Source: an uncultured bacterium (lineage in GTDB: Bacteria; Acidobacteriota; JAQAZP01). Taken from it: a stretch of DNA of 64,000 bases. The stretch is from contig CBESOE010000004.1 in assembly GCA_965531145.1 (NCBI GenBank), positions 24,912 to 88,911 of the forward strand, given 5' to 3'. Numbering within the stretch: the first letter of the stretch is position 1; every line of letters starts with the position of its first letter. Of the stretch, positions 1 to 20,728 are shown one piece after another. The position numbers and the translations under genes were made by a program. Under the pieces are notes generated by a model, which saw only the letters and a program-made list of their open reading frames with translations, searched no databases and was not told the DNA's origin.

Positions 1-1456
1 CGAACTCGCCGTCCATGATCCGCACGCGCATCCGGGTGGCTCCCGGCGTGGCCCCGGCGGGAGGCGTGACGGTAACCGTGTAGGGTCCAACGCCGATCCA
101 GCTGGTGGTGATGGTCTCGCCGGCATCGTCAAAGTCCTCGTCCTGGTTCCAGTCGATCCACATTCCGCCGATGTCGGTGGCGTAGGTCGTGTTGAGGGTG
201 ATGGTGGTCAGATAGCCGCTGCCGATATTCATGTCGGTGGACTGGCCGGTGTAGTCACTGTAGCCGGAGGCGCCGCTGCTGTTATCGATGGTGCCCATTT
301 GCACCCGTTCGATGTACTCGTAGTCGGAGCTGTTGGAATTGGCCGAACAGTACCCGCCGCCGCCCCCGCCGCAGAGCGAATCACGGGCCGCCTCGAAGGC
401 CGAGAGGTCTATCCTGGTGGCGTAATTCTCGCAGGAGAAGGAACAGTGGGTGATGATGCCGATGATCTCGTCGTTCTTCAGCAGCGCCGAGCCGGAGTTG
501 CCGTAGGTCATGTCAAGGTCGAAGGCGTAATAGGTGCTGGTGCGGGAAAGGATGTCGCCGCTGTGGGTCTGCTGCACCTGGCTGCGGGTGGGGTCGCTGT
601 TGTCCACGCCGTAGCCCCAGTTGTCGCAGGGGTCGCCCGAGCCGGCCAGGGCGGTGGCGATGGGCCGCATTTCGCCATAGCGCTCATAGGGCGTCTGGCC
701 GAGATTGTTGGTGCCCACCGTCATCACCGCCCAGTCGGCGCCCACGCCGCCGTTGACGAACTGGTGCGCGGTGACCGGGAACTGGTCGGCCACCGGCGGG
801 TTGTAGGTGTAGCAGCTGGAAGACGAGGCGGGCACGTTGAACTGCAGCGTGTCGTCGTAGCTGCCGTCGGCGCAGTGGCCGGCGGAGACGACACAGCTGT
901 CGGTGGAAACGATGGATCCGGTACAGCCCACCGGCACGATCCGCGCGCACCACAACTCGCTGGAGAGCGTGCGGTTGTCGGCGCCGCAGATGCCGCAGTC
1001 GTCATCGGCGCAGGGACCGCGGGTCACATCGGGGATGTGCACCGACACCCGGTCGATCACCACCCGGTTGCGCGCGGTCCCGGGCCAGACGAGCAGCTCG
1101 AGATAGACCTGGTCGCCGTTGAAGTAGGCCGAGGTGTTGTTCCACATGGCCAGGGCGTCGGCGTCCAGTTCCTGCACCTCGCCGTCGAACAGCGAGGTCA
1201 TCCGGATCAGGCTGCCCTCTTCCAGCTTGACCTTGCCGAAGTAGATCCGCATCCAGGCAGCATCCTTCACCGTGACCAGTTCCTCGTAGGCGATCTCCGG
1301 CTGGAGGCCCCGGTTGGCCAGCACACCGCTGTCCAGTTCGGACGCGCGGAACTCGCCGGTGGGCCAGTCCAGGGTTGACTGGGCCGCGGCCAGAGCGGGG
1401 AAGCCGACACAGAGCAGACCGACCAGCAATAGCTTCACCAATACTCGGTGTTTCAT
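1..1456 (-). CDS. Secreted trypsin-like (S1 family) serine peptidase with a C-terminal extension; 3' end runs off the window. Not in the ORF track because no in-window stop.
   Basis: Reverse-strand frame is open from ATG (rc of cat at 1454-1456) to position 1. N-terminus MKHRVLVKLLLVGLLCVGFPALAAAQS is a signal peptide. His motif VVSAGHC, Asp region GADWAVM, Ser motif YGNSGSALL (GDSGG-like, as in glutamyl endopeptidases). A Gly-rich linker (GGGGGGY) precedes ~130 aa of unknown C-terminal domain. The + ORF 299..1378 is its antisense artefact. Confidence 0.7.
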   Translation of the reverse strand, partial: MKHRVLVKLLLVGLLCVGFPALAAAQSTLDWPTGEFRASELDSGVLANRGLQPEIAYEELVTVKDAAWMRIYFGKVKLEEGSLIRMTSLFDGEVQELDADALAMWNNTSAYFNGDQVYLELLVWPGTARNRVVIDRVSVHIPDVTRGPCADDDCGICGADNRTLSSELWCARIVPVGCTGSIVSTDSCVVSAGHCADGSYDDTLQFNVPASSSSCYTYNPPVADQFPVTAHQFVNGGVGADWAVMTVGTNNLGQTPYERYGEMRPIATALAGSGDPCDNWGYGVDNSDPTRSQVQQTHSGDILSRTSTYYAFDLDMTYGNSGSALLKNDEIIGIITHCSFSCENYATRIDLSAFEAARDSLCGGGGGGYCSANSNSSDYEYIERVQMGTIDNSSGASGYSDYTGQSTDMNIGSGYLTTITLNTTYATDIGGMWIDWNQDEDFDDAGETITTSWIGVGPYTVTVTPPAGATPGATRMRVRIMDGEF

Positions 1457-1829
1457 CAGGTCCATGGATCTCGAGACCTCCTAGAATTGTGATGATTAAA
1501 ACGTGCGATCGTGCAACGGGGCCCGCCGTCCCACTGTGTCCGGAAAGCGATGGCTTTGACGAGAAACAGGGATAGCTGGCAGCAAGCTGAGGGATATGGC
1601 CGGATTACCCGGAAACCATTCCCCCCTTACCTGACATAAATATAGGGATACCGGTGCCGTGCCGTCAAGAGGAGTGTTGTTTGGACAGGGGAAAAGGGTG
1701 ACCGTTGCAGTCCTGAGTATGAAGTGGTTTCAGAACCCCATCTGTGGTTCGAGAGCGAGGCGCCGGCTGACGAGGACACGCAAAATACTCCGCTGGTATG
1801 CGAGCATTCCGAGGAAGCCGGCAACGACG

Positions 1830-2945
1830 CTATCGGTCCTCAGATGAAGTTGTGGAACCGCTTCCCGGCATTTCCTTGAGATAGAGATCGAGCTTGCTGT
1901 AGGGGATTTCGATACCGGCCTCATTGAACGCCTTGTAGACCCGAGTGTTCAGCGCGTCAAGCACCCGGCCCCGAAACACCGGCTCCTCGATCCAGGCCAG
2001 CAACTCGAAACGCAGCCCGGAATCACCGAATTCACGGAAACGGACCCGGGGCTCGGGCTTCGCAACCAGGTGCTCCACATCGTTCACGCAGGAGAGCAGC
2101 ACCTCCCGCACCTGGTCGGTATCGCTGCCGTAGGCGACGCTGACGCTGACCCGCACCCGCATCTTCTGGTCCCGGCCGCCGGCCTCGTTGATGATCTGGG
2201 CGTTGGCGATCAAGGCGTTGGGTACCGTGACCTCGATGTCGTCACGGGTCAGCACCCGGGTGGAGCGCACCCCGATGTCAGTGACCCGGCCGCGGACCTG
2301 GTTGTCGAGGTTAACGAAATCACCAATTTTGTACGGCGTGTCGGCGAGGATGAACACCCCGGCAAAGAGGTTGGCCAGGGTGTCCTTGGCCGCAAAACCC
2401 ACCGCGATACCCACCACCCCGGCCGAAGCGACCCAGGAGGTGACGTCGATGTTCCAGGAGACGAGGAAGAGGTAGAACGCACTGCCGATGATGATGACCT
2501 TTGAGCTGATCTCGAACAGGGGCAGTGTTTTGGGCTGGATCCAGGAGAAGCGTTTCATCGATCGGCTCAATCCGCCGAGAACGATACTGACCACCCGCGA
2601 GGCACCGAAATACCAGATCAGCAGGGCCATGGTCTTGATCGCGCCGAGGATGAAGTATTCCGCGGTGGGTTCCAGATCGAGGTCGAGCACCACCAGGGCC
2701 AGGCCGGCAAGAATAAAGGAGTAAAAGACCGGCCCGCGAACCACCAGGGCTACCCGATCGTCAATATCGGTATTCGTCTTGCTGACCAGGGCCAGTACGA
2801 CACGCAGAAATACGTAACGGGAGAGCAGAGCCGCCAGCACCGCCCCGGCCATGATCAGCCCCGACTTCACCCCTGGCAGTTGCAGCACGGGCTGCAGATC
2901 GGCCACCAGCTGCTCCATGGTCCCCTCCCCCTTCAGCAACGCCAT
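1830..2945 (-). CDS. Small-conductance mechanosensitive channel (MscS family)
   Basis: 371 aa with N-terminal TM helices followed by the conserved MscS beta-domain (...AAKDTLANLFAGVFILADTPYKIGDFV...TRVLTRDDIEVTVPN...). Confidence 0.85.
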   Translation of the reverse strand: MALLKGEGTMEQLVADLQPVLQLPGVKSGLIMAGAVLAALLSRYVFLRVVLALVSKTNTDIDDRVALVVRGPVFYSFILAGLALVVLDLDLEPTAEYFILGAIKTMALLIWYFGASRVVSIVLGGLSRSMKRFSWIQPKTLPLFEISSKVIIIGSAFYLFLVSWNIDVTSWVASAGVVGIAVGFAAKDTLANLFAGVFILADTPYKIGDFVNLDNQVRGRVTDIGVRSTRVLTRDDIEVTVPNALIANAQIINEAGGRDQKMRVRVSVSVAYGSDTDQVREVLLSCVNDVEHLVAKPEPRVRFREFGDSGLRFELLAWIEEPVFRGRVLDALNTRVYKAFNEAGIEIPYSKLDLYLKEMPGSGSTTSSEDR

Positions 2946-2999
2946 TCGTTCCAGTGAACAACCATAGCGTAGAACTATACCGTAAAACCGGTATCCGAT

Positions 3000-3692
3000 T
3001 CAGGGTTTCCTGCCAAAGGTGTAGTTGACTCCCACCATCAGCCGCGGCACAAACTCCGGCTGGTTGATCGCCGCGTTGGCATCGGCATAGGTGTATCCCC
3101 CTCGGGGGTTCACATCGGACCCGTGGGGATTGTACGTGGTGTCGTGGCCGCTGAGCCCCGAAGGGAAGTAGTAGTCGAGCATGGCCGAGAGCACCAGGTC
3201 CACCTTCCGCTTGCTGGACAGGCGGTAGTGCCCCTCCAGCCCCGCCCCGATCCCCCACTGCCTGGAGGTAACGTCGAACTGCTCGTTGCCGCCCACATAG
3301 TGGAAACTGCCGGTGAACTTCGAGTAGCGGGGACCGAGAAAGACGTAAGTCTCGCTGTTCATGAAGAGTTCCAGATCATAGAGCAGGTCGCAGCGCAAAT
3401 CCCAGGCCTCGCCGTCCTCGGTGGGCGTCCCGTTGGTGCCGTCATTGATAAATATCCGGCGGGCCGCCAGCGGGTCTCCGGGATCCCGCTCGGTCCAGGA
3501 GAAGCCGAAGCGGACATCCAGCGGAAAACCTTTGGCAAAATCGGAGAGCGTGGTGTTGAGCATGAAGCCGAAACCCTGGCCATAACCCACCGAGCCGCCC
3601 ACGGCCTTCTCGGTGGCGAACAGGGAGGGGGAAATGAGCAATAAGCATACAATTGTGTAACAAAGCGGGTTCAGGATCGTAATTCTCTTCAT
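3000..3692 (-). CDS. Outer-membrane beta-barrel protein (hypothetical)
   Basis: Signal peptide MKRITILNPLCYTIVCLLLISPSLFA; alternating hydrophobic/aromatic beta-strand pattern with Gly/Tyr-rich segments; AT-rich divergent promoter region 3693-3875. Confidence 0.55.
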   Translation of the reverse strand: MKRITILNPLCYTIVCLLLISPSLFATEKAVGGSVGYGQGFGFMLNTTLSDFAKGFPLDVRFGFSWTERDPGDPLAARRIFINDGTNGTPTEDGEAWDLRCDLLYDLELFMNSETYVFLGPRYSKFTGSFHYVGGNEQFDVTSRQWGIGAGLEGHYRLSSKRKVDLVLSAMLDYYFPSGLSGHDTTYNPHGSDVNPRGGYTYADANAAINQPEFVPRLMVGVNYTFGRKP

Positions 3693-3875
3693 TGTTTTCC
3701 TCTGTAATTTTGGCGCATCAGCCTGATTTTGAATTAATTACAGTTCATAAAGAGCAAACTGGATGCCAGTCTGGTCAGTAACCGGGAACTTTCCCGGGAC
3801 CCGGGCGTTGTGTCAGGTGAATCGGGAATTGAATCGCGGCCCTGGAAGCCGACAGCAACTAACAGATGGAGGAAC

Positions 3876-4763
3876 ATGACGATGCGGATCAAGACACTGA
3901 CCACCCTCTTCTCCCTGACCCTGGTGGCCCTGCTCTCCTGGAGCGCCGGTGCGGCGGTGCTGGCCGACGACGAGGTTCTGGAGCCGGTGCAGGTAGAGCA
4001 GACGATCTGGGTCACCAGCGGTGACGCGGGTGACGAGGACGTGAAAACCTGGACCACCGACAACGGCGAAGTGATCGTGATCAAGGGTGACTGCAAGCTG
4101 GAAACCATCGGCGAAGATGGTGAAAACGTGATGGTCCAGGTCCACGGCTGTGGCGACGGGGACATCCACAAAGTGATCCATATGGGCGGCATGGGCGGCG
4201 AGCCTGTGCAGCGGACCTTTCTCGGCGTGGGGCTGAGCAGCCTGACCCCGGAGCTGCGGGTGCACTTCGGCTCCTCCGAAGGTACAGGCATCATGGTCTC
4301 CAGCGTGGTGGAGGGGAGCCCGGCCGAGGCGGCAGGCCTCCAGGTGGGTGACGTGATCACGGCCATCGGCGGCATCGAGGCCACTTCAGCCTCGGCGGTG
4401 CAGGAAGCGGTGCGCGAGTTGAGCGAAGGCGACACCGCCCTGGTGGAAGTGCTGCGCAACAGTTCACCGATGAGTTTCGAGGCGGTGCTGACCACCAAGG
4501 AACTCCCCGGGTTCGACTTCAACTTCGATTTCGACCATGTGCTGGAAGGTGTGGAAGGCGCGCACCAGTGCATCATCAAGATGAAGAACGGCGACAACGA
4601 GTTCTACTACGACACCGAAAACCTCGACGAGGCCCTGGAGAAGCTCAACGTCTATCTGGAGGGGCCGGAGTTTGAAGAGATGATCGAAAAGCACCAGGCC
4701 AGCGGTGAGGACATCGAAAAGCGCCTCGAGATTATCGAGAAGAAAGTTGAGGAGATCGAATAG
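3876..4763 (+). CDS. Secreted PDZ-domain protein (no protease domain) with an acidic coiled-coil C-terminus; paralog of 5920..6828
   Basis: Start chosen at MTMRIKTLTTLFSLTLVALLSWSAGAAVLA (signal peptide) inside track ORF 3810..4763. PDZ core FLGVGLSSLTPELRVHFGSSEGTGIMVSSVVEGSPAEAAGLQVGDVITAIGG. C-terminal E/K-rich helix. Confidence 0.7.
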   Translation: MTMRIKTLTTLFSLTLVALLSWSAGAAVLADDEVLEPVQVEQTIWVTSGDAGDEDVKTWTTDNGEVIVIKGDCKLETIGEDGENVMVQVHGCGDGDIHKVIHMGGMGGEPVQRTFLGVGLSSLTPELRVHFGSSEGTGIMVSSVVEGSPAEAAGLQVGDVITAIGGIEATSASAVQEAVRELSEGDTALVEVLRNSSPMSFEAVLTTKELPGFDFNFDFDHVLEGVEGAHQCIIKMKNGDNEFYYDTENLDEALEKLNVYLEGPEFEEMIEKHQASGEDIEKRLEIIEKKVEEIE

Positions 4764-4848
4764 AATAGGACCGGTGGATTCCGACCCGGGTCCCGTTGCG
4801 GGGCCCGGGTTCACCTGATCGACCCGGCGCCATAACCGGTGGAGTGAA

Positions 4849-5415
4849 ATGGTGGAGGCAAGTGAAGCAGAACTGATGGCCCGCACCAGGCAGGGGGACG
4901 AAGAGGCCTTTGCCTTGATCGTGGACCGCTTCAAGGACCGGGTGGTCAACTACCTCTGCCGGCTTACCGGGGACCGCGACCGCGCCGAGGACACGGCCCA
5001 GGAAACCTTCCTCCGCCTCTTCCGCACATCATCCGGCTACCGCGAGGAAGGACACCTGGCCGCTTTAATCTTCCGGATCGCCACCAACCTGGTGCGGTCG
5101 GAGGAGCGGCGTAACCGGCGCTGGCGGCTGTTCCGGGCCACGGTGCCCGCAGGGGGGAACGGCAACGGCGGACCGCCCAATCCCCAGACCCGGCTGCTGC
5201 AGCGGGAAGCCGCGGAGCAGCTCGGCGCCGCCATCGGCGAGCTGCCGCTGAAGTTCCGGGCGCCGCTGATGCTGCGGGAGATCGAGGGCCTGTCCTACCA
5301 GGCCATTGCCGAGGCCATCGGCTGCCGGGAGGGAACGGTGAAGTCGAGAATCAACAGGGGCCGGCAACAGCTGCGGGAGCGGCTGGAGCCATACTGGATC
5401 GGAGGGATGGGATGA
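4849..5415 (+). CDS. ECF (sigma-70 family, group IV) RNA polymerase sigma factor
   Basis: Region 2 (DEEAFALIVDRFKDRVVNYLCRLTGDRDRAEDTAQETFLRLFR) and region 4 HTH (REIEGLSYQAIAEAIGCREGTVKSRINRGRQQLRE); 188 aa. Confidence 0.9.
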   Translation: MVEASEAELMARTRQGDEEAFALIVDRFKDRVVNYLCRLTGDRDRAEDTAQETFLRLFRTSSGYREEGHLAALIFRIATNLVRSEERRNRRWRLFRATVPAGGNGNGGPPNPQTRLLQREAAEQLGAAIGELPLKFRAPLMLREIEGLSYQAIAEAIGCREGTVKSRINRGRQQLRERLEPYWIGGMG

Positions 5416-5828
5416 GCGACGAGCGTATCAGCAAAGAGCTCAAAGCGCTGCCCAGGGAGAAGGCGTCGGAGAAGTTCACCCGCCGCGTTCTCGCCAACCT
5501 CCCGCGCACCGAGAAGCGACGGATTCCGGCCTGGGGCTACCGCCTGGCGGCCGCGGCCACGGTGATCATCCTGCTGGTGATCCCGATGAGCCTGCGCCGC
5601 TGGTCCATGTCCATCGATACCGGAAACGAAGCGGTGCTTGCCGAAATCGAGGCGGTCCGCTCGGAAAAGGCGCTGATCGAGAGGGAATTGCGTGACCTGA
5701 GGGAGAAGGCAGCCGAAGAAAGCCCGGTGGTCTACCTCGGCGGCAACGAAGAGGTAAACCTGGTGCTCGACGTGGGCGCCCTGCTCAATCGGAGCACCGA
5801 GGCGAACGAGGGCACATCGGCCTTTTGA
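5412..5828 (+). CDS. Putative membrane-anchored anti-sigma factor
   Basis: ATGA start/stop overlap with the sigma gene; 138 aa; single TM (AAAATVIILLVIPM); cytoplasmic N-terminus, short coiled-coil C-terminus. No zinc-finger anti-sigma motif, so assigned by context only. Confidence 0.55.
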   Translation: MSDERISKELKALPREKASEKFTRRVLANLPRTEKRRIPAWGYRLAAAATVIILLVIPMSLRRWSMSIDTGNEAVLAEIEAVRSEKALIERELRDLREKAAEESPVVYLGGNEEVNLVLDVGALLNRSTEANEGTSAF

Positions 5829-5919
5829 GCGACAGTGAGACGAGAAACGAGAGCACCGGACAACGGTGCCGGAACAGCACGATGCACAACGATCCGAGGA
5901 TCGACGGAGGAACTGAACG

Positions 5920-6828
5920 ATGAAGTGGAACACGTGGAAACTGATCGTCACCGGCTGCACCCTGGCCGGTCTGGCCCTGTTTACGTCCGTGGCGCCGGCC
6001 GCGGTGCTCCCCGACGACGAGACAGGCACCGCCGGCGAGCAGGAGAAGGCGGTGGTCAAGGTGAAGGAGATCCGCGCTGACGGCGCGACCAAGATCAACG
6101 TCAAGGTCGTGGGGGACCATGATGGTGAGCATGTGGTCCACTGGGTGGGCTCGCCGGCCAATCGGGGTTTTCTCGGCGTGGCGTTGAACTCGCTGAGCCA
6201 TGATCTGCAGAAGCACTTCGGCGCGGCCGAAGGCAGCGGAGTGATGGTGGGCTCGGTGGTGGAGGGCAGCCCGGCCGAGGCCGCCGGCATCAGGGTGGGC
6301 GACGTGATCACCGCCATCGACGGCGCTGACGTGGCGTCGCCCTCCGACGTCCAGCGGATCATCCGCGAGAAGGAGGAGGGAGAGGCCGCCACCATCGCGC
6401 TGGTGCGGAGCGGCGCCCCGCTGACCGTCACGGCCACGGTGGGCGTGAAGGAGATGCAGGAATTCGACATCGGCATGCTGGGCGATATCGGGGACCTGAA
6501 AAAGAAGGCGTTCTTCATTTCCAGCGGCATGGAAGGCGGGAACATGGTCTTCGAAACCGTGGACGGCAATGTCACGGTGGACCTGACCGAGGAGATGGAT
6601 AAACTGGAGAATATTTTCATCGAAAAACTCGGCGATTCCGACGACCTGATCTACTTCGACACCGAGACCTTCAACGATTCGATGAAGGAAGTGCACGAAT
6701 ACCTGGCCAGCCCCGAGTTCCAGGAAAAGCTGAATGGTCTGCAGGAGCGTGAACTGGAGCTGCAGCAGCGGCTGGAGGCCCTGGAACTGAAACTGGAGAA
6801 ACTGGAAGAAGTGCACGAAGAGCAGTAG
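5920..6828 (+). CDS. Secreted PDZ-domain protein with coiled-coil C-terminus; paralog of 3876..4763
   Basis: Signal peptide MKWNTWKLIVTGCTLAGLALFTSVAPAAV. PDZ core FLGVALNSLSHDLQKHFGAAEGSGVMVGSVVEGSPAEAAGIRVGDVITAIDG, collinear with the first paralog. C-terminus ELELQQRLEALELKLEKLEE. Confidence 0.7.
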   Translation: MKWNTWKLIVTGCTLAGLALFTSVAPAAVLPDDETGTAGEQEKAVVKVKEIRADGATKINVKVVGDHDGEHVVHWVGSPANRGFLGVALNSLSHDLQKHFGAAEGSGVMVGSVVEGSPAEAAGIRVGDVITAIDGADVASPSDVQRIIREKEEGEAATIALVRSGAPLTVTATVGVKEMQEFDIGMLGDIGDLKKKAFFISSGMEGGNMVFETVDGNVTVDLTEEMDKLENIFIEKLGDSDDLIYFDTETFNDSMKEVHEYLASPEFQEKLNGLQERELELQQRLEALELKLEKLEEVHEEQ

Positions 6829-6980
6829 CTCCGCCACTCCGTCGATATGCTGAAAGCCTCCCGACCCCCACGGGCCGGGAGGCTTCTCTTTGTACGGCCG
6901 GTAATTGACAGTGCGGGAATATCCACTATGCTGATCCTTGGGAATCGAAGATTCGAAAAACATATTTCTCTGGTGGTGTA

Positions 6981-9266
6981 ATGATGAACTCCCGTCCTTT
7001 CATGTTGTTCCTGCTTCCGACCCTGCTCGTCCTGGCTGCGCTCCTCACTGCCGGTCCGGCCGTGGCCGAACCCTACGACGCCAGCGGGATCGAGCCCCTG
7101 CGCTGGACCGGCCCGGAGCCGCCCACTTCGTATACCGAGTGGTCAGCCGGCCAGATCAGGGAGCCGTTCAGCATCCACCCGCTGGAATGGATGACGGCGG
7201 AAAGCAACGGCAGCGACAACGGTGCCGGCAGCAACGTCCTGGTGATGGTCAACGAGGGACTGCGGCCGGCCATCGAAGCCAACCTCAACCGCTATGTGGG
7301 AGACATCGCCAGTGGCGGGTGGAGCCCGCAGGTCTACGAGACCGCCGGCGGCACGCCGGAGATCCTCAAGTCGTTCATCATCGACCACTCCGCAGACCTG
7401 GCGGCAGTGGTCTTCTTCGGCCGGATGCCCACACCGTGGTACGAGTCGGACGAGGAGTTCCCCTTCGACTATTTCTACATGGAACTGGACGGGGAATGGA
7501 TCGACGCCGACGAGGACGGCATCTACGACGGGCTGGAGGATGGCGCGGGCGACCAGGGGCCCGAGATCTTTGTCGCCCACATCGATTCATCGATGATGAC
7601 CTGGTGGGATGAGGCGGAGTCGGTGAACCGCTACCTGGACAAGGACCACGAATTCTGGAGCGGCGGGATCACTTGCACCGACTACGGCCTGACCTACACC
7701 GAGGACGACTGGGCCAGCGGGGACGACATCTGCACGGCCATGCGCTACGCCTACCCGTCATACCACGAGATCCGCGCGCCGGAAACCCACCGCGACGACT
7801 ACGTGCTGAACCGGCTCCCCGAACCGGCCTACGAGTTCATCCAACTGGCCTGTCACTCCTGGTCCGGCGGCCACGGGTTCACCCGCGGCGGTGACGCCAG
7901 CAGCTGGCGGGTGGCCAGCACCGAACCGGAGGCCCTGTTCTACAACCTTTTCTGCTGCAGCGCCCTGCGCTGGGTCGAGGAAAACCACCTGGGCGGGGCC
8001 TACATCTTCAATCCCGGCACCACCTGCCTGGCCACACTGGGAAGCACCAAGAGCGGCTCGATGCTCAACTTCAGCTGGTTCTACGAACCGTACGGCTCCG
8101 GCGCCTCCCTGGGTGAGTCGCTGCGGATCTGGTTCGACGAAGTGGCCCCGTTCGAGCAGTGGGAGATCGACTGGCACATGGGGATGTCGATCACCGGCGA
8201 CCCCTTTCTCAACCGGACCAACAGTTCGCCGGTGAAACCGCAGATCATCACCGGGCCCGGTCCGCTGGCCGGCCAGGACCCCTTTGTCCGGGGCTACGGC
8301 GTTGACGGCGTACCCCGCCCCTGCACCGAGTTCGACCCCTATGTCTGGCTCAACGGATACGGTACGCGGGTGGCTGTGGGCGACCTGGATGCCGACGGTC
8401 TGATCGACATCGTCACCGGCACCGGCCCCGGGCCCGAACTGGCGCCGGTGGTCCGGGCCTACGACCTGGGCGGGACCCATCATGCCGGTTCGAACTTCCG
8501 CCCCTACGGCACCAGCGGCTGGGGCGTGGAGGTGGCCTGCGGCGACCTTGACGGCGACGGCCGCGACGAGATCGTCACCGGGCCCGGGCCCGGGCCGGTG
8601 GCCGGGCCCCATGTCCGGGCGTTCACCTGGGACGGTGAAACCGTGGCGCCGCTGGCGGGAACGAACTTCCAGGCCTACGGCACACCGCGCTATGGTGTGG
8701 AGGTGGCCTGCGGCGACCTGGACGGTGACGGCTTCGACGAGATCGTCACCGGCGCCGGGGCCGGAGCGGTCTTCGGGCCCCACGTCAGGGGCTGGAACGT
8801 GGACGGCGGGCCGGCCACGGCCATCCCGGGAGTCAGCTTCTTTGCCTACAACACGCTCCGCTGGGGCGTCAACGTGGCCTGCGGCGACCTCGATGGGGAC
8901 GGCATCGATGAGATCGTCACCGGACCCGGCCCGGGGCAGATCTTCGGGGCCCACATCCGGGCCTGGCGAGTCAGCGGCGGCAGTTGCAGCCCCCTGCCCG
9001 GGGCCAGCCTGCTGGCCTACCCAGGGGGCATGCGCTACGGCGCACGGGTCGCCTGCGCCGACATCGACGGTGACGGCCGCGACGAAATCATCACCGCCCC
9101 GGGGCCCGGCCCGGAGAACAGCGCCCACATCCGCGGGTTCGAATATGCCGGCGGCACCCTGGCCCCCCTGACCACGCCGGACTTCATCGCCTGGTCAGCT
9201 GAGGAGTACCGCGGTGGTTCGCTGCTGGCAGCGGTGGACCTGGAGAGCGTGATCAGGCTTCGCTGA
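6981..9266 (+). CDS. Secreted protein: N-terminal caspase-fold (clan CD; C25/gingipain-like) cysteine-peptidase-like domain plus C-terminal seven-blade FG-GAP beta-propeller
   Basis: Signal peptide MMNSRPFMLFLLPTLLVLAALLTAGPAVA. Candidate His-Gly / Cys dyad spacing ...ACHSWSGGHGF...(26 aa)...NLFCCSAL. C-terminal 7 repeats of ~65 aa, e.g. YGVEVACGDLDGDGRDEIVTGPGPGPVAGPHVRAF. Protease assignment is by motif only. Confidence 0.7.
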   Translation: MMNSRPFMLFLLPTLLVLAALLTAGPAVAEPYDASGIEPLRWTGPEPPTSYTEWSAGQIREPFSIHPLEWMTAESNGSDNGAGSNVLVMVNEGLRPAIEANLNRYVGDIASGGWSPQVYETAGGTPEILKSFIIDHSADLAAVVFFGRMPTPWYESDEEFPFDYFYMELDGEWIDADEDGIYDGLEDGAGDQGPEIFVAHIDSSMMTWWDEAESVNRYLDKDHEFWSGGITCTDYGLTYTEDDWASGDDICTAMRYAYPSYHEIRAPETHRDDYVLNRLPEPAYEFIQLACHSWSGGHGFTRGGDASSWRVASTEPEALFYNLFCCSALRWVEENHLGGAYIFNPGTTCLATLGSTKSGSMLNFSWFYEPYGSGASLGESLRIWFDEVAPFEQWEIDWHMGMSITGDPFLNRTNSSPVKPQIITGPGPLAGQDPFVRGYGVDGVPRPCTEFDPYVWLNGYGTRVAVGDLDADGLIDIVTGTGPGPELAPVVRAYDLGGTHHAGSNFRPYGTSGWGVEVACGDLDGDGRDEIVTGPGPGPVAGPHVRAFTWDGETVAPLAGTNFQAYGTPRYGVEVACGDLDGDGFDEIVTGAGAGAVFGPHVRGWNVDGGPATAIPGVSFFAYNTLRWGVNVACGDLDGDGIDEIVTGPGPGQIFGAHIRAWRVSGGSCSPLPGASLLAYPGGMRYGARVACADIDGDGRDEIITAPGPGPENSAHIRGFEYAGGTLAPLTTPDFIAWSAEEYRGGSLLAAVDLESVIRLR
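8229..9266 (+). repeat. Coding tandem repeat: 7 x FG-GAP blades (C-terminal propeller module, copy 1 of 3 in the window)
   Basis: Repeating GDxDGDGxDEI[VI]TG[PA]GPG...GPHVR[AG][FW] units; homologous modules at 9941..~11030 (-) and 57161..~58230 (-). Confidence 0.75.
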
Positions 9267-9303: not shown

Positions 9304-9831
9304 CTAGAACCCCACCCCCACTCCCACACGGTAAACCCACGGTGAGTTGTAGGAACTGTAAGGATCACCACTGTCATAAAGGAAATCGTAGAGCACCGAG
9401 AAATTGATCGCCGCGTGATCGCCCAGGGGCTGGGAGAACCCGCCGCCGCCCAGCAGACCGTTGTGGTTGGTGCGCTCGGTGCTGCCGTTCAGGGTGTAGT
9501 ATTCGTAGTTCAGGTAGTCGTACTCACCCTGGACGAAGATGTGCGGTATCACGTGGTAGCGGAGAAAAAGCCCACCGCCGTAATCGCTGGTGGAGAGGCT
9601 TGGCGAATACCGGCTGTCCTTGCGGTAACGGTAGGTCAGCCGCAAACCGGTGGCCAGCTTATCCACCGGGTAAAATCCCACCGTGGGTGAAAACTCGACA
9701 AAATCCACCGTGCCGAAGCCGGCCCCGAACCAGCCGCCCCAGAACATGTTCTTGTCCCCCCGCTCCCCGGCACCGGCCACGGTACTCAGGGTGAGAACCA
9801 CGAGCACGATCAAAACAATTCTGCATTTCAT
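9304..9831 (-). CDS. Small outer-membrane beta-barrel protein (OmpW/opacity-like, hypothetical)
   Basis: Signal peptide MKCRIVLIVLVVLTLSTVAGA; Gly/Tyr/Phe-rich strand pattern; C-terminal ...RVGVGVGF (terminal Phe typical of OMPs). Confidence 0.6.
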   Translation of the reverse strand: MKCRIVLIVLVVLTLSTVAGAGERGDKNMFWGGWFGAGFGTVDFVEFSPTVGFYPVDKLATGLRLTYRYRKDSRYSPSLSTSDYGGGLFLRYHVIPHIFVQGEYDYLNYEYYTLNGSTERTNHNGLLGGGGFSQPLGDHAAINFSVLYDFLYDSGDPYSSYNSPWVYRVGVGVGF

Positions 9832-9940: not shown

Positions 9941-11030
9941 TCAGAAGCGGCCAGCGGCCACGGTGGCCCCGTGACTCATACCGGAGAAGCTCTCCAGGGT
10001 GGCCCAGGAGGTAACCTGGCTGCCGTCATAGCTGAAGACCGACACCGTGCTGCCCACCAGCGGGTCGGGGCCCAGACCGGCCACGATCTCGTCCCGACCG
10101 TCGCCGTCCAGGTCGGCCCGGGCGCTGACGTTCGCACCGAAGCGGTTCTCCGGCCAGGAGAAGGCGAAGAAGCTGAGACCGGGCAAGGGACTGATCCCGC
10201 TGCCGTCGTGGTTCCAGCCGCGGACGTGGGCGCCGAACACCGCCCCCGGCCCGGGTCCGGTGACGATCTCGTCGATGCCGTCGCCGTCCACGTCACCGCA
10301 GGTCACGTTCACCCCGAACTGGTTGGTGGAGTATGCGAAGTAGCTCACGCCGGGGATCGACGCTGCTGCCCCACCATCCACGTTCCAGCCCCGCACGTGG
10401 GGGCCGTAGACCGTGCCCGGGCCGGCGCCGGTGACGATCTCGTCGTAGCCGTCGCCGTCGATATCGCCGGTGCAAACGTTGACTCCCCACTTGGGCGTGC
10501 CGTAGGCAAAGTAGTTCACCCCGGACAGTGCGGTCACCCCTGAAGTGCCGTCATAGTCCCAGGCGCGCACATGGGGCCCGAACACCGCGCCGGGGCCGGC
10601 GCCGGTGATGATCTCGTCGAACCCGTCACCGTCGATGTCGCCGGCAGCAGCGTTCACCCCGTATTTGTTGGTGCCGTAAGCGAGGAAGCTCAGGCCGGGA
10701 AGCGGCGTGCCGTCGATGTCGAAACCCCGCACGTGGGGCCCGTAGATCGCCCCCGGTCCGGCACCGGTGAGGATCTCGTCCAGGTCGTCGCCGTCCAGGT
10801 CGCCGGCGCCCACGTTCACCCCGAAGCCGTCAGCGCCATAGGCCGCAAACTCGTAGAGGTGCACCGCCCCGCTCTGCGGGGGAAAGACTCGCACGTCGGG
10901 CGGGTTGGTTTCGGACGGGCCGGGGCCGGTGATGATCCGCGGCGCACTGAGGTCGCCACCCGGCTCATAGAGCGGCCGCTCGAAAATGCCGTTGCCATGG
11001 GTCGCCGCGCGGAGCAGCCGGTCCGGGGCG
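9941..11030 (-). repeat. Coding tandem repeat: FG-GAP blades (C-terminal propeller module, copy 2 of 3)
   Basis: Same repeat family as 8229..9266, in opposite orientation on the other side of the small OMP gene. Confidence 0.75.
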
Positions 11031-13255
11031 TAGACCTTGAGGTCGTTGATCATGGCCGGACCCATCCCTTCCTGGAAGCTGTACCAGGTCTGGCCGCTGT
11101 CCGGCGAAAGATAGACCCCCAGATCGCCGCCCACATAGACCACCTGCGGGTGGAGCGGATCCACCATCACCGCCGAGGTGGGGACGTCGGGCAACCCCTG
11201 GCCGATGTCGGACCAGCTGTCACCGCCGTTGACACTGCGGAAGACGTGGCTGGTGCCGTAGCCCATGATGGTGGCGTAGACCACGCTGCTGTCGCTGGGA
11301 TCCACGGTGAGATCGGTGATGTAGCGGTCGGGCAGGCTGCCGGTGACTTCCTCGAAGGTGTCACCATTGGTGGTGCGGTAGACCCGCGCCCGGTCGGTGT
11401 TCGCGGCAGTGGCGACGTAAACCACATTTTCGTCGGTGGCCGAGATGGCCATGCACATGGCCGCGTTGATGCCGTTCAACGTGCTGCCGCCATGGATGGA
11501 GTCCCAGTCAAAGCCGCTATTGGTGCTTTTATAGACCCGGGAGCGGCCAGCGTAAACCACATCCGGGTTGGAGGGACTGAGCACGAAGGGCGCGATGAAG
11601 GCGGTGTTCTCGCCGCCGGTTTCCGGGGGGGCGATATAGTTCCAGTAGGCACCGTCGTTGGAGGTGCGTTGCAGGTAGAGGAACTGCGCCGAACCGTAGA
11701 GGATGTCGTCATCCTGAGGATTCACCGCGGTCCAGGATCCGTCGCCGCCGATCACCCGCTCCCAGGCCGGGCCGCCGCGGTAGATGGCGGTGGCGGTGTC
11801 CTGCATCCCGCCGATCAGCTTGTCCCGGCTGGTGGCCGACAGGCCCATGCCGTTGTAGAACTGGGTGGTGATATAGCCGCCGATCAGGCTGGCAAAGCTG
11901 TCGCCGCCGTCGGTGCTCTTGAACACCCCGCCGTCGGAGCAGAAGAAGATGGTGTTGGGGTCGGTGGGGTGCCAGAAGGCGTTGTGGTGGTCGGCGTGAG
12001 CGTAGTCGGAACCACCGATGGGGCCTTCCGGGGGTGGTGTACCGTAATACATGCTGGTCCAGTCCGACCGCCGGGAGAAGGAACTCCCGCCGTTGGTGGA
12101 GCGATGGATCTCGATGCCGGCCACGAAGACCAGGTTCACGTCAAAGGGGCTGGGCAGCACGTAGTGCGAGTAGAAGCCCTGGTATTGCTGGTAGTCGCCG
12201 CCGTAGGCCTGCACCCAGGTGTCGCCGGTGTCGGTGGAAAGGTAGAGCCCGCGGCCCGACTCGGTGTTGCCGATACTGGCGTAAATCCGGTTTGGCTGAG
12301 GGAGGGCAATGGCCAGCTGGGTCTTGCCGCTCCAGGAGGCGGGCAGGCCGTCGGTCAGTTTGGTCCAGCTGTCGCCGCCGTCGGTGGTGCGGTAGATCCC
12401 GTGGTTTTCCGAGCTGAAGTTGCCGTGGGCGCTGAACACGGTCTCCGGGGTGGTGGGGTGGATCCGGATGTCGGTGCCCATGATCACGTCGTGCACCAGG
12501 GTCCAGTCACCGCCGGCATTGGTCGACTTGTAAATCCCCTCGGTGGTGGCGGCATAGACGATATTGGAATCGGTGGGGTGGACGGCGATCATCCAGACCC
12601 CGCGGTTCTGGTCATAGCTCCAGTCGAGGCTCTGGGTCCAGCTGGCCCCACCGTCAGTGCTCTTGAGGATGCCGATGCCGTAGCTGCCGCGGGTCAGGCG
12701 GTTCAACTCGCCGCCGTCGGAAGCCTGGTAGCGGTAAACCTCGCCGGTGCCGATATAGATCACGCTGCTGTCGGCGGGATCGAGGGTGACAGTGCTCACC
12801 GCCAGGATGGGGTAGCCGGTCTCAACCCGGTCCCAGGCGTCGGCCCCCACCCCGCCCACGGTGGTCTTCCACAGCCCGCCGCTGGCGCTGCCGGCAAACA
12901 TGGTCTGAGGGTTGTCGGGATCGATGGCCAGGGTGAGGGTGCGGCCGCCGATGTTGTACGGCCCGAGCACGCTCCAGGAATCGGCACCCCGGTCGCCGGT
13001 GGCGGCGTCCTCCACCCGGGGGATCAGCTTCGACTGCTCCCACGCCCGGCCAAATCCGCCGGCCGGGATCAGGTTCCCGGGATAGGCCCGCTGAGCGGCC
13101 CAGAGATCGAGCGCCTGGAGGGCGCCGCTGTATTTCAGTTGCGGCTGATCCTGCTCCACGCCGGCCGGCGGCAGCAGGAAAACCAGGGCCACAACGGTCA
13201 ACACCGCCGTGGCCGTCCACAAACGCCCGTCACTGATACTGCGTATCATCGTCAC
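9941..13255 (-). CDS. Secreted BNR/Asp-box (sialidase/GH74/sortilin-like double beta-propeller) protein fused to a C-terminal FG-GAP beta-propeller
   Basis: N-terminal TM/signal region, then >10 Asp-box motifs (STDGGASW, STNAGGDW, TTDGGDSW, STDTGDTW, STNGGSSF, STDGGDSF, STNSGFDW, SVNGGDSW, SPDSGQTW). C-terminal FG-GAP blades (GVNVGAGDLDGDDLDEILTGAGPGAIYGPHVRGF...) ending ...HGATVAAGRF. Confidence 0.8.
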   Translation of the reverse strand: MTMIRSISDGRLWTATAVLTVVALVFLLPPAGVEQDQPQLKYSGALQALDLWAAQRAYPGNLIPAGGFGRAWEQSKLIPRVEDAATGDRGADSWSVLGPYNIGGRTLTLAIDPDNPQTMFAGSASGGLWKTTVGGVGADAWDRVETGYPILAVSTVTLDPADSSVIYIGTGEVYRYQASDGGELNRLTRGSYGIGILKSTDGGASWTQSLDWSYDQNRGVWMIAVHPTDSNIVYAATTEGIYKSTNAGGDWTLVHDVIMGTDIRIHPTTPETVFSAHGNFSSENHGIYRTTDGGDSWTKLTDGLPASWSGKTQLAIALPQPNRIYASIGNTESGRGLYLSTDTGDTWVQAYGGDYQQYQGFYSHYVLPSPFDVNLVFVAGIEIHRSTNGGSSFSRRSDWTSMYYGTPPPEGPIGGSDYAHADHHNAFWHPTDPNTIFFCSDGGVFKSTDGGDSFASLIGGYITTQFYNGMGLSATSRDKLIGGMQDTATAIYRGGPAWERVIGGDGSWTAVNPQDDDILYGSAQFLYLQRTSNDGAYWNYIAPPETGGENTAFIAPFVLSPSNPDVVYAGRSRVYKSTNSGFDWDSIHGGSTLNGINAAMCMAISATDENVVYVATAANTDRARVYRTTNGDTFEEVTGSLPDRYITDLTVDPSDSSVVYATIMGYGTSHVFRSVNGGDSWSDIGQGLPDVPTSAVMVDPLHPQVVYVGGDLGVYLSPDSGQTWYSFQEGMGPAMINDLKVYAPDRLLRAATHGNGIFERPLYEPGGDLSAPRIITGPGPSETNPPDVRVFPPQSGAVHLYEFAAYGADGFGVNVGAGDLDGDDLDEILTGAGPGAIYGPHVRGFDIDGTPLPGLSFLAYGTNKYGVNAAAGDIDGDGFDEIITGAGPGAVFGPHVRAWDYDGTSGVTALSGVNYFAYGTPKWGVNVCTGDIDGDGYDEIVTGAGPGTVYGPHVRGWNVDGGAAASIPGVSYFAYSTNQFGVNVTCGDVDGDGIDEIVTGPGPGAVFGAHVRGWNHDGSGISPLPGLSFFAFSWPENRFGANVSARADLDGDGRDEIVAGLGPDPLVGSTVSVFSYDGSQVTSWATLESFSGMSHGATVAAGRF

Positions 13256-16007: not shown

Positions 16008-16469
16008 ATGGACAACAAGCCGATCATTTTCACCGTGGGCCACTCGTCACTTGAGGAGGAGGCCCTGCTGCGTCTGCTCTCGGCCCACGGGGTGAAGGCC
16101 GTGGCCGACGTGCGCAGCGTCCCCGCATCCGGCCGGCACCCGCAGTTCAACCGGCGGGGGTTCGAGCCGTTTCTCGAGAAGGCCGGATTCCGCTACCTCT
16201 GGCTGGGGCGAGAACTGGGCGGGCTGCGAAAAGGGATGACCTACCAGGAGCACATGTCGACGGAACTCTTTTCCACCGGCCTCGAGGTCCTGGAATGCAT
16301 GGGCCGGGTGCGCCGCACCGCCATCCTCTGCGCCGAGCGGCACCACACCGACTGCCACCGCAAGCACATCGCCGACGCCCTGGTCCGCAGGGGGTGGCGG
16401 GTGGTGCACATCACCGAAGAAAATCGGGCGGAAGACCACCAGCTGCAGCAAACGCTGTTCGACAGCTAG
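16008..16469 (+). CDS. DUF488 family protein
   Basis: MDNKPIIFTVGHS... start motif and ...ILCAERHHTDCHRKHIAD motif typical of DUF488; track ORF begins at 15972, so start uncertain. Confidence 0.65.
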   Translation: MDNKPIIFTVGHSSLEEEALLRLLSAHGVKAVADVRSVPASGRHPQFNRRGFEPFLEKAGFRYLWLGRELGGLRKGMTYQEHMSTELFSTGLEVLECMGRVRRTAILCAERHHTDCHRKHIADALVRRGWRVVHITEENRAEDHQLQQTLFDS

Positions 16470-17806
16470 TCCGGATTCCCCACCACCACCAGGACGTAGC
16501 GGCCGGCGTCGAGGAAACGGCGACCTGTCTCCAGAGCCGCGGCGGCATCCACATCCTTCAGAGTCTCGATGTGGTCGAGGACGTATCGATCGCCCAGGCC
16601 GAGCATCCGTGCTGAAATCATCATCCCGGCCAGCCCGTCCGGTGTGGCCGAGGCCAGCTCGTAGCTGCCGATCAGGTATTCCCGTGCCTCGGCCAGTTCC
16701 TGCAGGGTGATCCCGTCTTTCAGCAGTCGTTCCAGCTCACGGAGGATCAGGGCGGTGGCGGCATCGGTGCCGGCGCTGGCCGTGGCGGTGGCGATGGTGA
16801 TCGGGCCGGCAGTGAGCCCGGCGCTGGCCGAGGAGTTGATCCCATAGGTCCGGCCCTCCTCCACCCGCACCGCCTGCATCAGCCGCGAGGAGAACCCGCC
16901 ACCACCCAGCACGTAATTGAAGACCTGGAAGCGCTCCCAGTCCGGATCGGTGCGCCGGATTCCGGGCCAGCCGAGAGTGATGCTCGACTGGGTCAGGCCC
17001 TTCATCGAGACTCGGACCACCCGCGGCTTTTCCAGCGTCACCCGTGGCGCCGGGACGGGCGGGAGGAGTTCTCCCGGTTCCCACTTCCCTGCCGTCTCAT
17101 TGACCGCGGCGATAAAACGATCGGACTTGATGTTTCCCACCACCACCAGCTGCGCTCCATCAGTACCGTAATAGCGGGCAAGTCGCTCCCCCGCATCCTT
17201 CAGGCCCGTGCGGCCCAGGGTGCGCCAGGTGGCGTTGCGACCCAGGGGGTGGTCTTCCCCGTACAGTTCGATCATCAACCGGCGACGGGCCACCGCACCG
17301 GGCCTGCTCTCATCCAGTTTCAGCTCCCCGCGCAGGCGATCCCGGGCGCGGGTAAGGTCAGCCTTGTCTATCCGTGGGTCGGCCACGGTCTGCACCAGCA
17401 GTTCCAGAAGCCGTTCGAAATCGGCGGCCAGTCCGCGGATCCAGAAGACCGTGTAATCGTTGGTGACGTAAGCGCCCGTCTGGCCACCCAATGCCTCCAC
17501 CTGGCCCGCACGAACGTCGCTGAGGGTACGGGCCAGCAGCTCGGCCATCCCCTCCTTACCCTGGGGGTCGTGCAGGCGGCCCACCGGCAGGCCCAACCGG
17601 AGGGTCACCAGGGGCAGTTCATCGTATCCGGCAAGTTGGCCGTGCAGCCCGTTCTCCAGATTCACCACGGCGATGATCCCTGACTCGACCATCAGGGCTG
17701 CCGCCGGCACGTCGCTGAACAGGGCCACGCAGACGGGGATGAGGCAGAGCAGCAGACTGCCCACCACCAACCGGCCAGCGTGACTGTTTGACAGGTGCCT
17801 CACCAC
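16466..17806 (-). CDS. M16 family (pitrilysin-like) peptidase, likely non-catalytic partner subunit
   Basis: 446 aa with M16 N/C domain architecture but no HxxEH motif; adjacent to the HxxEH-containing M16 gene; signal/TM at N-terminus. Confidence 0.75.
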   Translation of the reverse strand: MVRHLSNSHAGRLVVGSLLLCLIPVCVALFSDVPAAALMVESGIIAVVNLENGLHGQLAGYDELPLVTLRLGLPVGRLHDPQGKEGMAELLARTLSDVRAGQVEALGGQTGAYVTNDYTVFWIRGLAADFERLLELLVQTVADPRIDKADLTRARDRLRGELKLDESRPGAVARRRLMIELYGEDHPLGRNATWRTLGRTGLKDAGERLARYYGTDGAQLVVVGNIKSDRFIAAVNETAGKWEPGELLPPVPAPRVTLEKPRVVRVSMKGLTQSSITLGWPGIRRTDPDWERFQVFNYVLGGGGFSSRLMQAVRVEEGRTYGINSSASAGLTAGPITIATATASAGTDAATALILRELERLLKDGITLQELAEAREYLIGSYELASATPDGLAGMMISARMLGLGDRYVLDHIETLKDVDAAAALETGRRFLDAGRYVLVVVGNPD

Positions 17807-17807
17807 C

Positions 17808-19247
17808 CTACCTCCCCAGCAGGCTCTTCAGAATCCCGAAGATCCAGTAAGTGAACCGGAACTCATCTGGTTTGATCCAGCCCACCACCGCGTTCTCCTC
17901 CGCCAGGTAGATCGCGGCCACCCGCCGCACGTCCCCGGCGGTCACCGCCTCGATGCGGGCCACGTGGTCCGCGAACCGTTCCGCATCCCCCTCGATCACC
18001 GTTGCCCACCCCAGGGCGCTGGCCGCCCCCTCCGGGCCGGAGAGGCCGAAGAGCCGGCGGACCAGCAACCGGCGGCGGGCCTGCCCAAGCTCGTCTTCCG
18101 GAACATCCTCTTCGCGCAGCCGGCGGACCTCCTCCCACATGGCCCGCTCCACAGTCTTTGATCGCACCGAGGGGAGGAAGACGGCAAAGGCCACCAGGCC
18201 GGAGGGGTCGATGGTGCGCTCGAAAATGGTGTCGACGTAGACCGCCAACCGCTGCTCGCGGACCAGGCTGTTGGTCAGCCGCGCCCGGCTGCCACCGGTG
18301 AGCAGTTCGCGGACAACCTCCAGGGCGGGGTAGTCCGGGTGTGAGGCCTCGGGTGTATGAAAACCGAGGCCCACCACCGGTACCTCCACCGGCAGTTCCA
18401 GGGTGTGGCGGGCCAGTTCCTCACCATAGGGCTCCGGTGTTGGCGACGGGCGCTCCAGTGCCGCGCCCACCGGCACCGGCCCGAAGTGGCGGCGAACCAG
18501 TTGCTCGACTTCGAGCTTGTCCACACTCCCGGCCACCACCAGCACCGCATTGCCCGGCTGGTAGTAGCGGTGGTAGAAGTCGCGGCACTGCTCCACGGTG
18601 AAGCTGTTCAGCTGCTCGGCATCACCCAGCACATCGTGGCGGTAGGAGTGGACGGTGAAGAAGAGTTTCTTGTACCAGGAATAGGCAGCGCCCAGCTGGT
18701 CGTTCTCCATCCGCAGCCGCAGTTCCTCCAGCACCACTTGGCGCTCGGTATCCAGCATCCCGGCGTCCAGGGCCAAATTGGCCATGCGATCCGCTTCCAG
18801 CTCCAGGGCCAGTTCCAGGCGCTGCGCCGGCAGGGTCTCGTGGTAAACGGTGACGTCCTCGCTGGTCCAGGCGTTGCTCCGCCCCCCCACCGCCTGGATC
18901 CGGCGGATGAACTCCTCGGGGCCCACCGTGTCGGTCCCGCGAAACATCATGTGTTCGAAGAGGTGGGCCAGGCCGTGCTCACCCTCCCCCTCGTCCCGGC
19001 CGCCCACGCGGTACCAGACCTGCACCGCCACCGCCCCGGAAGATTCGTCGGGAAGCACGAGGACTTCGAGGCCGTTATCCAGAGTGAAGGTATGGAGGGG
19101 ATCGCAGAACGCTGGTGGGACAACAGCACAGGCAAGAAGGAGGGAGAGAAGAAGAAAAAATCGGGGACAGGCACCGCTGCCCTTCGGGAATCGTTGCCAG
19201 TCCCCATTTTTTCCAGTCCCCATTTTTGACAACGAAAAGGCCGTCAT
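17808..19247 (-). CDS. M16 family zinc metallopeptidase (insulinase-like), catalytic subunit
   Basis: Inverted zinc motif HLFEHMMFRG (HxxEH); signal peptide ...PRFFLLLSLLLACAVVPPAF; GAGG-type RBS before ATG at 19247. Confidence 0.85.
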   Translation of the reverse strand: MTAFSLSKMGTGKNGDWQRFPKGSGACPRFFLLLSLLLACAVVPPAFCDPLHTFTLDNGLEVLVLPDESSGAVAVQVWYRVGGRDEGEGEHGLAHLFEHMMFRGTDTVGPEEFIRRIQAVGGRSNAWTSEDVTVYHETLPAQRLELALELEADRMANLALDAGMLDTERQVVLEELRLRMENDQLGAAYSWYKKLFFTVHSYRHDVLGDAEQLNSFTVEQCRDFYHRYYQPGNAVLVVAGSVDKLEVEQLVRRHFGPVPVGAALERPSPTPEPYGEELARHTLELPVEVPVVGLGFHTPEASHPDYPALEVVRELLTGGSRARLTNSLVREQRLAVYVDTIFERTIDPSGLVAFAVFLPSVRSKTVERAMWEEVRRLREEDVPEDELGQARRRLLVRRLFGLSGPEGAASALGWATVIEGDAERFADHVARIEAVTAGDVRRVAAIYLAEENAVVGWIKPDEFRFTYWIFGILKSLLGR

Positions 19248-19275
19248 TGGGCCTCAGATCCAGGTTTAACCGCTT

Positions 19276-20715: not shown

Positions 20716-20728
20716 CGGACTTTATGCC

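Follow-up and report, generated by a model that had tools for sequence, protein, structure and literature searches.

A six-bladed FG-GAP propeller as a putative modular C-terminal targeting domain of exported Acidobacteriota proteins

Why should three exported proteins with unrelated N-terminal parts all end in the same large repeat domain? The question is raised by a 64,000-nucleotide stretch of DNA from an uncultured member of the Acidobacteriota (contig CBESOE010000004.1, positions 24,912 to 88,911; hereafter the window), in which genes A, B and C each encode a head followed by an FG-GAP repeat region. Acidobacteriota are abundant and mostly uncultured, and their deployment of extracellular enzymes is poorly known. 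The initial annotation suggested that the repeat region is a dedicated sorting, anchoring or lectin module. Part of this proposal holds, as the region is a discrete, swappable domain at the C-terminus of at least 53 unrelated heads; a dedicated junction was not found, nor was a sorting machinery in the window or the related loci, and a lectin-like or retention role fits best. What appears to be new, judging from sequence comparisons, is the use of an FG-GAP/VCBS propeller as a modular C-terminal domain with a putative targeting function, together with its exchange for a second end-domain, here called CTD2.

The shared module and its predicted fold

Gene A (6981..9266, forward strand) encodes 761 residues, comprising a signal peptide, a head of about 400 residues that could be assigned to no family, and the C-terminal module (8229..9266). 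Gene B (9941..13255, reverse strand) encodes 1104 residues, with an N-terminal hydrophobic segment, a Sortilin-Vps10/BNR head and the module at 9941..10960 (339 residues plus the stop codon). Gene C (57161..59548, reverse strand) encodes 795 residues, with a clear signal peptide like that of A, a head combining DUF4214 with a DUF5010/GH99-like domain, and the module at 57161..58198 (345 residues plus the stop codon). Pfam bears out the BNR-type and DUF4214/glycosidase-like heads originally ascribed to B and C. The head of A had been called protease-like; its sole domain match is to Peptidase_C25, below threshold (E=0.24, 11 bits), and sequence searches of PDB and NCBIfam with this head returned no match, hence its identity as a protease is unproven. 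The reading frame of C is open to 59719 (57161..59719), and its gene had first been taken to start at 59549. The most likely start is instead the ATG at 59548 (MAGLTRSL...), which supplies the signal peptide; another real gene ends 12 nt upstream of this start.

The translations of all three genes end, as first described, in the same repeat, which extends over about 340 residues and aligns end to end at 47-65% identity. Its FG-GAP character was also correctly recognised: FG-GAP (PF01839) scores 62.6, 65.2 and 36.2 bits in the three proteins, against a gathering cut-off of 22.1, and FG-GAP_3 (PF13517) scores 59.4, 42.8 and 38.6 bits, against 26.9. A hidden Markov model (HMM) built from the three modules was run on the six-frame translation of the whole window, and scored 591-636 bits on A, B and C (591 for A, 634 for C) and at most 2 bits anywhere else. 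The window contains an internal control in a fourth FG-GAP protein (20729..23770, reverse strand; 1013 residues), which has four repeats of about 110 residues of no known type, a PEGA domain and a generic FG-GAP_3 match near its C-terminus; it scores 1.7 bits with the module HMM. Hence the module is real, far beyond chance, and distinct from generic FG-GAP arrays, and its interpretation as such an array was ruled out.

The module is built from six units of about 57 residues, with the pattern [IV][IV]TG[AP]GPG..GPHVRG[FW]..DG....F.AYG...[YW]GVNV..GD.DGDG.DE. Between proteins, blades that occupy matching positions are 56% alike, compared with 44% for those at different positions, and therefore the six-unit block has been inherited whole. 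Seven blades had been counted initially. However, the heads of B and C stop immediately ahead of the first unit, leaving no room for a seventh, and AlphaFold2, supplied with a 52-sequence alignment, predicted 24 strands arranged as six four-stranded blades (pLDDT 94.7, pTM 0.93). The module of A likewise has six units by motif register, and a shallow AlphaFold2 run also gave a propeller, whose tail is of low confidence.

This predicted fold also accounts for the conserved entry segment and closing sequence, which had been read as a dedicated junction and tag. Both sequences are present, but in the model the closing strand (..HGATVAAGRF) completes a blade opened by three strands containing IITGPGP.., DVRVF and YEFAAY, in the velcro manner of propellers. 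The AlphaFold2 model and the family alignment thus make them two halves of one blade, and rule out distinct junction and closure motifs. The tail [KH]YGATVAAG[GR]F-COOH reported for two of the proteins is found in B (which ends ..SHGATVAAGRF-COOH) and C (..WKYGATVAAGGF-COOH), whereas A has a variant closing strand (..GGSLLAAVDLESVIRLR); across the family the consensus reads THG.NVAAGRF.

Between the first two strands of a blade lies a D-x-D-x-D-G-type Ca2+ loop, present as a sequence motif. The module of B has five D-x-D-G-D-G-x-D-E loops, and four or five intact Ca-loop motifs occur in 102 of 144 family modules, for which the median net charge is -24. The structure prediction called for at the outset gave a confident propeller, although of six blades and with its Ca site present as a sequence motif. 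Conservation peaks in the loops between strands 2 and 3 and in strand 3 (GAGPG..GPHVRG[WF]); the outer strand 4 and the loops between strands 3 and 4 are the most variable. By its Pfam matches, its Ca-loop motif and its predicted velcro-closed fold, the module belongs to the FG-GAP/VCBS beta-propeller superfamily.

Family size, terminal position and lineage

Among 1.84 billion cluster representatives (clustered at 50% identity), the module profile matched 17,421 clusters at E<=1e-3 and 1,643 at E<=1e-30. Within the top 150, five or fewer residues follow the module in 130 of the 134 new representatives, and the module spans 334-345 residues in nearly all top representatives. The 120 best matches of a word-indexed search had the same terminal position and size; in both runs every protein listed was under about 1.75 times the query length, so that the lengths of these matches are not a fair sample. 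In 1.2 Mb of related loci, where genes were open reading frame (ORF) calls filtered by third-position GC, there were 142 module ORFs, 140 of them with a complete 3' end. In 128 of these 140 the module is followed by at most five residues, and the cases that look non-terminal come from short tails or from envelopes ending ahead of the last blade. Hence neither of the observations that might have undermined the initial proposal, a random position within proteins or a generic array with no conserved tail, was made: the module is terminal, of fixed size, conserved blade by blade and closed by a consensus tail. It is, on these alignments, a discrete C-terminal family distinct from generic FG-GAP arrays, for whose shared part NCBIfam holds no model.

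The heads are far more diverse than the module. BLAST grouped 181 of them into 53 clusters (at least 53 unrelated heads), including peptidases of Pfam families S8, M14, C1, C25, M28 and C11, as well as GDSL lipase, GSDH, BNR_2, Sortilin-Vps10, PAD_porph, N-glycanase, F5/8 type C, PKD, BACON and Invasin_D3 domains. Most carriers have an N-terminal hydrophobic export signal. With so many unrelated heads, the role of the module must be independent of the activity of any one of them. Many database entries of about 330-350 residues (P0026, P0067, P0104, P0115 and others) resemble stand-alone modules starting at Met; at least some of these are short gene calls or fragments, as the P0026 cluster also has a 1073-residue member. 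The names of cluster members, when looked up, were uninformative, being absent, "hypothetical protein" or the mistaken "autotransporter adhesin".

This family appears to be narrow in lineage. A scan of GTDB species representatives with two exact peptide patterns found, among the matches listed, full-length relatives (39-58% identity over the best segment) only in the Acidobacteriota metagenome-assembled genomes (MAGs) CAWIIB01, JAQAZP01 and JAXLQT01, with taxonomy as titled in the records; given the method, at least three MAGs carry it. More distant matches in Kerfeldbacteria, Fimbriiglobus, Eisenbacteria and Roseivirga were rejected as ordinary FG-GAP arrays, neither terminal nor of fixed size. 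Whole-module relatives also occur in related metagenomes. In one 5.8-Mb MAG, at least 18 different proteins carry the module. An 89-kb metagenome contig (L081; ENA NODE_16_length_89262) includes a segment that matches positions 1..8686 of the window at 99.98% identity; two further module genes lie on it just past the left edge of the window, encoding 566 residues and 832 residues (the latter with DUF362), which brings the total on this contig to five. Positions 1..2050 are 99.1% identical to RCNC010001243.1 (L082). In terms of sequence, then, the module is lineage-restricted and high-copy. Genes for a GDSL lipase and a sulfatase also lie just past the window's left edge, and the RCNC01 dataset to which L082 belongs is seemingly a metagenome assembly rather than a single genome.

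Orthologues of B and C in related MAGs keep their neighbouring genes, with head and module similarly conserved at near 80%. The B orthologue P0124 is 78% identical, and locus L006 has two tandem B paralogues; the C orthologue in CAWIIB01 (L014) has the same gene order, its head being 82% and its module 83% identical. Such equal conservation of heads and modules in orthologous pairs implies no extra constraint on the module, and could be taken to mean that it has no special role: an ordinary FG-GAP domain spread by recombination at 3' ends, or a Ca2+-dependent aid to folding and stability, in either case terminal by accident. FG-GAP repeats are indeed common in bacterial exported proteins, as the generic example at 20729..23770 illustrates. 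Nevertheless, the six-blade size, the blade-specific conservation, the 1,643 clusters at E<=1e-30 with their regularly terminal placement and the exchange with CTD2 are hard to explain by drift alone, and we give this explanation hardly any credence.

An alternative end-domain and the question of sorting

Clustering of the heads revealed that many proteins lacking the module share heads with module proteins, and end instead in CTD2, a domain of about 118 residues. Its consensus is ..C.P.SGTLPF.T.M...L.N...GQ.RR.AGRID..LAGG..Y.NWR.G.TN...G......W.Q.IPALG.L.G.N.FTL.AEDVTPAPYNQPPY.P.GDT....C.VTG.AP-COOH, with a conserved Cys pair, and it ends ..EDVTPAPYNQPPY.P.GDT....C.VTG.AP-COOH; most CTD2 proteins place a PYNQPPY motif exactly 25 residues before the C-terminus. 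Searches of Pfam, NCBIfam and PDB, including the sorting-domain models (none at E<=1), gave no match to CTD2. It occurs in 32 ORFs from the loci (L002-L157), being terminal in 30 and alongside a propeller in none, and both domains are found on the same MAG contigs.

The window itself contains two such proteins. One, encoded at 59560..60441 (reverse strand) directly upstream of gene C, is an exported protein of 293 residues, of which the last 118 (59563..59916) are CTD2, ending ..EDVTPAPYNQPPYLPSGVTDTDSCTVTGSVP-COOH. The other, an exported trypsin-like protein with a GEVED domain, is represented by the first 488 of its 844 residues (1..1465, reverse strand), its CTD2 C-terminus lying outside the window; the full protein was read at L081:7222-9756, and its tail matches the CTD2 HMM as L132|2-1672. 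Some heads with 64-79% identity along their entire length end in CTD2 in one protein and in the propeller in another, and the two versions cease to resemble each other within a few residues of the domain start. These pairs include adjacent genes in locus L106, at 16419..18893 and 18908..20758, and neighbouring genes in L102. Hence the propeller and CTD2 are, by head comparison, interchangeable on the same heads. No third recurrent terminal domain was found in the 1.2 Mb of related loci, and a crude regular expression revealed no difference between propeller and CTD2 carriers in the use of a lipobox or an ordinary signal peptide.

An exchange of this kind is reminiscent of the type IX secretion system (T9SS), whose C-terminal domains on Bacteroidota cargo are beta-sandwiches of about 70-100 residues that are recognised by a known machinery and removed. 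As a functional analogy the likeness is considerable, in that T9SS domains are also shared by many exported hydrolases and adhesins, lineage-restricted, present in multiple copies and of alternative types. The module differs in being a 340-residue propeller, and no NCBIfam or Pfam model of a T9SS sorting domain matched it; CTD2, at 118 residues, comes closer to the T9SS length, but likewise matched nothing by sequence. Either end-domain could nonetheless be a true sorting or attachment signal, recognised by a dedicated outer-membrane machinery and perhaps cleaved or covalently attached, a reading that we consider unlikely, although it is the chief rival of the one preferred below. It is encouraged by the strictly terminal position of both domains, with 0-5 residues after the propeller and none after CTD2 in 30 of 32 cases, by their mutual exclusivity and exchange on the same heads, and by the lineage-restricted, high-copy nature of the family, which is usual for sorting domains. 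Several heads (C25, PAD_porph, M14, S8, BACON, PKD and F5/8-C) also resemble T9SS cargo. The two domains might then, though we hold this with little confidence, be alternative address tags of an undescribed Acidobacteriota sorting or surface-attachment system with its own recognition machinery. Such a system, should it exist, which seems doubtful, would set the fate of each hydrolase, whether displayed, released or sent to another compartment, and could tentatively be regarded as an analogue, built from different folds, of the type A and type B C-terminal domains of the T9SS.

Yet a 340-residue folded propeller with Ca-binding loops is unlike any known sorting signal, and no NCBIfam sorting model matches either domain. 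The secretion or attachment machinery for which the initial annotation proposed a check of the genome also failed to appear in the sequence covered: no sortase, exosortase, rhombosortase or T9SS component is present in the window annotation, and no T9SS machinery was seen in the window and the fetched loci. Clustering of neighbouring ORFs, first in 25 and then in 102 loci plus the window, recovered only local synteny, histidine kinases and sulfatases, with no partner gene recurring beside module genes across the 103 sequences, and the family alignment contains no conserved motif resembling a processing site ahead of the module. Signals of the PEP-CTERM, LPXTG or GlyGly-CTERM type were rejected, as the proteins end in the closing strand of the propeller (..VAAGRF) plus 0-5 residues, with no transmembrane helix or basic tail; PEP-CTERM tails were also absent from the 1.2 Mb of related loci. 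An outer-membrane barrel or autotransporter was suggested by database names, some JGI records being titled 'fibronectin-binding autotransporter adhesin', and by terminal Phe residues. This too was rejected, since a propeller is predicted, there is no autotransporter Pfam match, and the last residue is Phe in just 55 of 130 representatives (32 of which end in "RF"). Rfam and tRNA scans of the window returned nothing.

The same loci bear on the idea that the propeller docks with another protein, plugging enzymes into a scaffold or surface-layer protein to form multi-enzyme assemblies in the style of dockerins and cohesins. Dockerins are Ca-dependent and mostly C-terminal, and, like carbohydrate-binding modules, resemble the propeller in being non-catalytic, modular and swapped among paralogous enzymes; the conservation of one face across paralogues would suit a docking surface. 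However, neither the window nor the 1.2 Mb of related loci showed a candidate scaffold bearing repeated partner modules, and no cohesin-like partner is known, making this explanation highly improbable.

Putative lectin-like retention and its genomic setting

No solved structure lies near to the module, and its best structural matches are with recognition domains. For both models, Foldseek ranks UmbA4 of the Streptomyces umbrella toxin first (PDB 9OEE; E 1e-7 to 8e-7, TM-score 0.57-0.60), ahead of integrin alpha and the PVL lectin. UmbA4 carries its lectin at the C-terminus, a six-bladed propeller whose Ca-type loops are conserved and which binds teichuronic acid, a glycopolymer of the bacterial surface, on target cells (PMC13274773). 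It resembles the module in its six blades, its conserved Ca-type loops and its placement at the C-terminus of a secreted multidomain protein. Yet there is no detectable sequence kinship between them. The binding pockets of UmbA lectins are diversified and these lectins direct toxins in Actinobacteria, whereas the module is strongly conserved between paralogues, is found on dozens of hydrolase heads in Acidobacteriota, and has a glycan ligand that is putative.

Integrin alpha and PVL-type domains (PDB 2BWM; PMC8023676) share the FG-GAP/cage motifs and D-x-D-x-D-G Ca loops, and integrin alpha-V is weakly detectable by sequence (E about 1e-5; 8e-6). These are seven-bladed propellers, however, and the module differs in its six blades, extra GPHVRG[WF] strand, C-terminal placement and fixed length of 334-345 residues. 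The superposition on integrin and PVL is globally poor (TM-score about 0.5) because of this difference in blade number, and the module was not classed as an integrin-alpha-type propeller. Among solved structures, PDB sequence searches found no six-bladed propeller whose sequence is recognisably similar to FG-GAP repeats, and a literature search for a C-terminal or six-bladed FG-GAP module in Acidobacteria returned nothing relevant beyond general FG-GAP/VCBS papers and the UmbA work. Across the VCBS/FG-GAP superfamily, recognition roles are found in integrins, PVL and toxin components.

We favour a lectin-like function in retention, given what the fold resembles, the Ca loops, the size of the domain and its conserved face. 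The module has about an even chance of being an interchangeable, non-catalytic retention or targeting module with one common putative ligand. Carriers would be exported, presumably through Sec given their N-terminal signal sequences, and the propeller would fold around four or five Ca2+ ions held in the D-x-D-G-D-G-x-D-E loops on one face. The opposite, conserved face and the blade interfaces (GAGPG..GPHVRG[WF], FxAYG) would bind the ligand, most plausibly a glycopolymer of the cell's own envelope or matrix. Many different enzymes might thereby be held at, or directed to, one place, with CTD2 in the same slot on the same heads specifying an alternative destination. A single shared ligand is preferred to diversified specificities because paralogues with unrelated heads in one genome keep 47-65% identity, with the strand 2-3 loops and strand 3 being the most conserved.

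Several considerations weigh against this. The conserved His, Arg and Trp residues could be structural alone. A profile search of PDB with the module, up to E=5, found only integrin alpha, CRTAC1 and ITFG2, and did not find UmbA4. The strict terminal position fits a sorting signal better, and carbohydrate-binding modules are not usually confined to the C-terminus. Lastly, the figures on position were drawn from the 150 best-scoring representatives and from loci picked by module motifs.

A lectin might instead be directed outwards, targeting enzymes to substrate like a carbohydrate-binding module, by binding an external polymer such as detrital polysaccharide, peptidoglycan or another organism's surface and so concentrating enzymes on food. 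Carriers are mostly hydrolases, the fold class includes lectins, and swaps of binding modules among paralogous carbohydrate-active enzymes are common. However, no single substrate would be common to heads as different as proteases, lipases, a deiminase, glycosidases and non-enzymatic ones, and such modules tend to spread widely by transfer and to occupy varied positions, unlike this lineage-restricted, terminal domain, which also differs from carbohydrate-binding modules and dockerins in fold and size. We consider substrate targeting unlikely.

Other features of the window lie around these genes. Directly upstream of A (3810..6828, forward strand) are genes for an extracytoplasmic function sigma factor (4849..5415), a probable membrane anti-sigma factor (5412..5828) and two PDZ-domain proteins, an order that recurs in L081; a regulatory link to A is possible. 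Between A and B, 9304..9831 (reverse strand) encodes an exported protein of 175 residues with a signal peptide and an alternating aromatic, Gly-rich sequence ending ..YRVGVGVGF-COOH, like a small outer-membrane beta-barrel; it has no Pfam match, nor a homologue next to module genes in the first 25 loci. A similar alternating aromatic/Gly-rich pattern is seen in an exported 230-residue protein with a signal peptide at 3000..3692 (reverse strand), which has no Pfam match and is also in L081.

Adjoining gene C, in an order kept in CAWIIB01 (L014), is a pair of genes at 52947..57154 (forward strand) with overlapping stop and start codons, encoding an 851-residue multihaem cytochrome (Cytochrome_C7, c3, MtrC/MtrF-like) and then a 550-residue exported protein assigned to no family; the pair may be an extracellular electron conduit of the porin-cytochrome type. 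Nearby, 51461..52603 (forward strand) encodes 380 residues with matches to a LIM-like zinc finger and a DA1-like peptidase, a combination best known from plant DA1 proteins and unusual in a bacterial contig. An envelope glycan cluster at 43159..49752 (reverse strand) encodes a 965-residue Wzy_C protein (O-antigen ligase-like), a GT2 glycosyltransferase, a B12-binding radical SAM protein and a GT9 heptosyltransferase, and would be of interest if the ligand of the propeller is an envelope glycopolymer.

The propeller module and CTD2 provide two new domain families for annotation. That one lineage places the same large propeller on many exported hydrolases offers a testable handle on enzyme localisation, and the exchange of propeller for CTD2 makes the localisation question itself testable. 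If a dedicated machinery were to recognise these domains, they would represent a new protein-sorting system. If instead the module is a lectin, its ligand would identify a conserved polymer of the envelope or matrix of this lineage.

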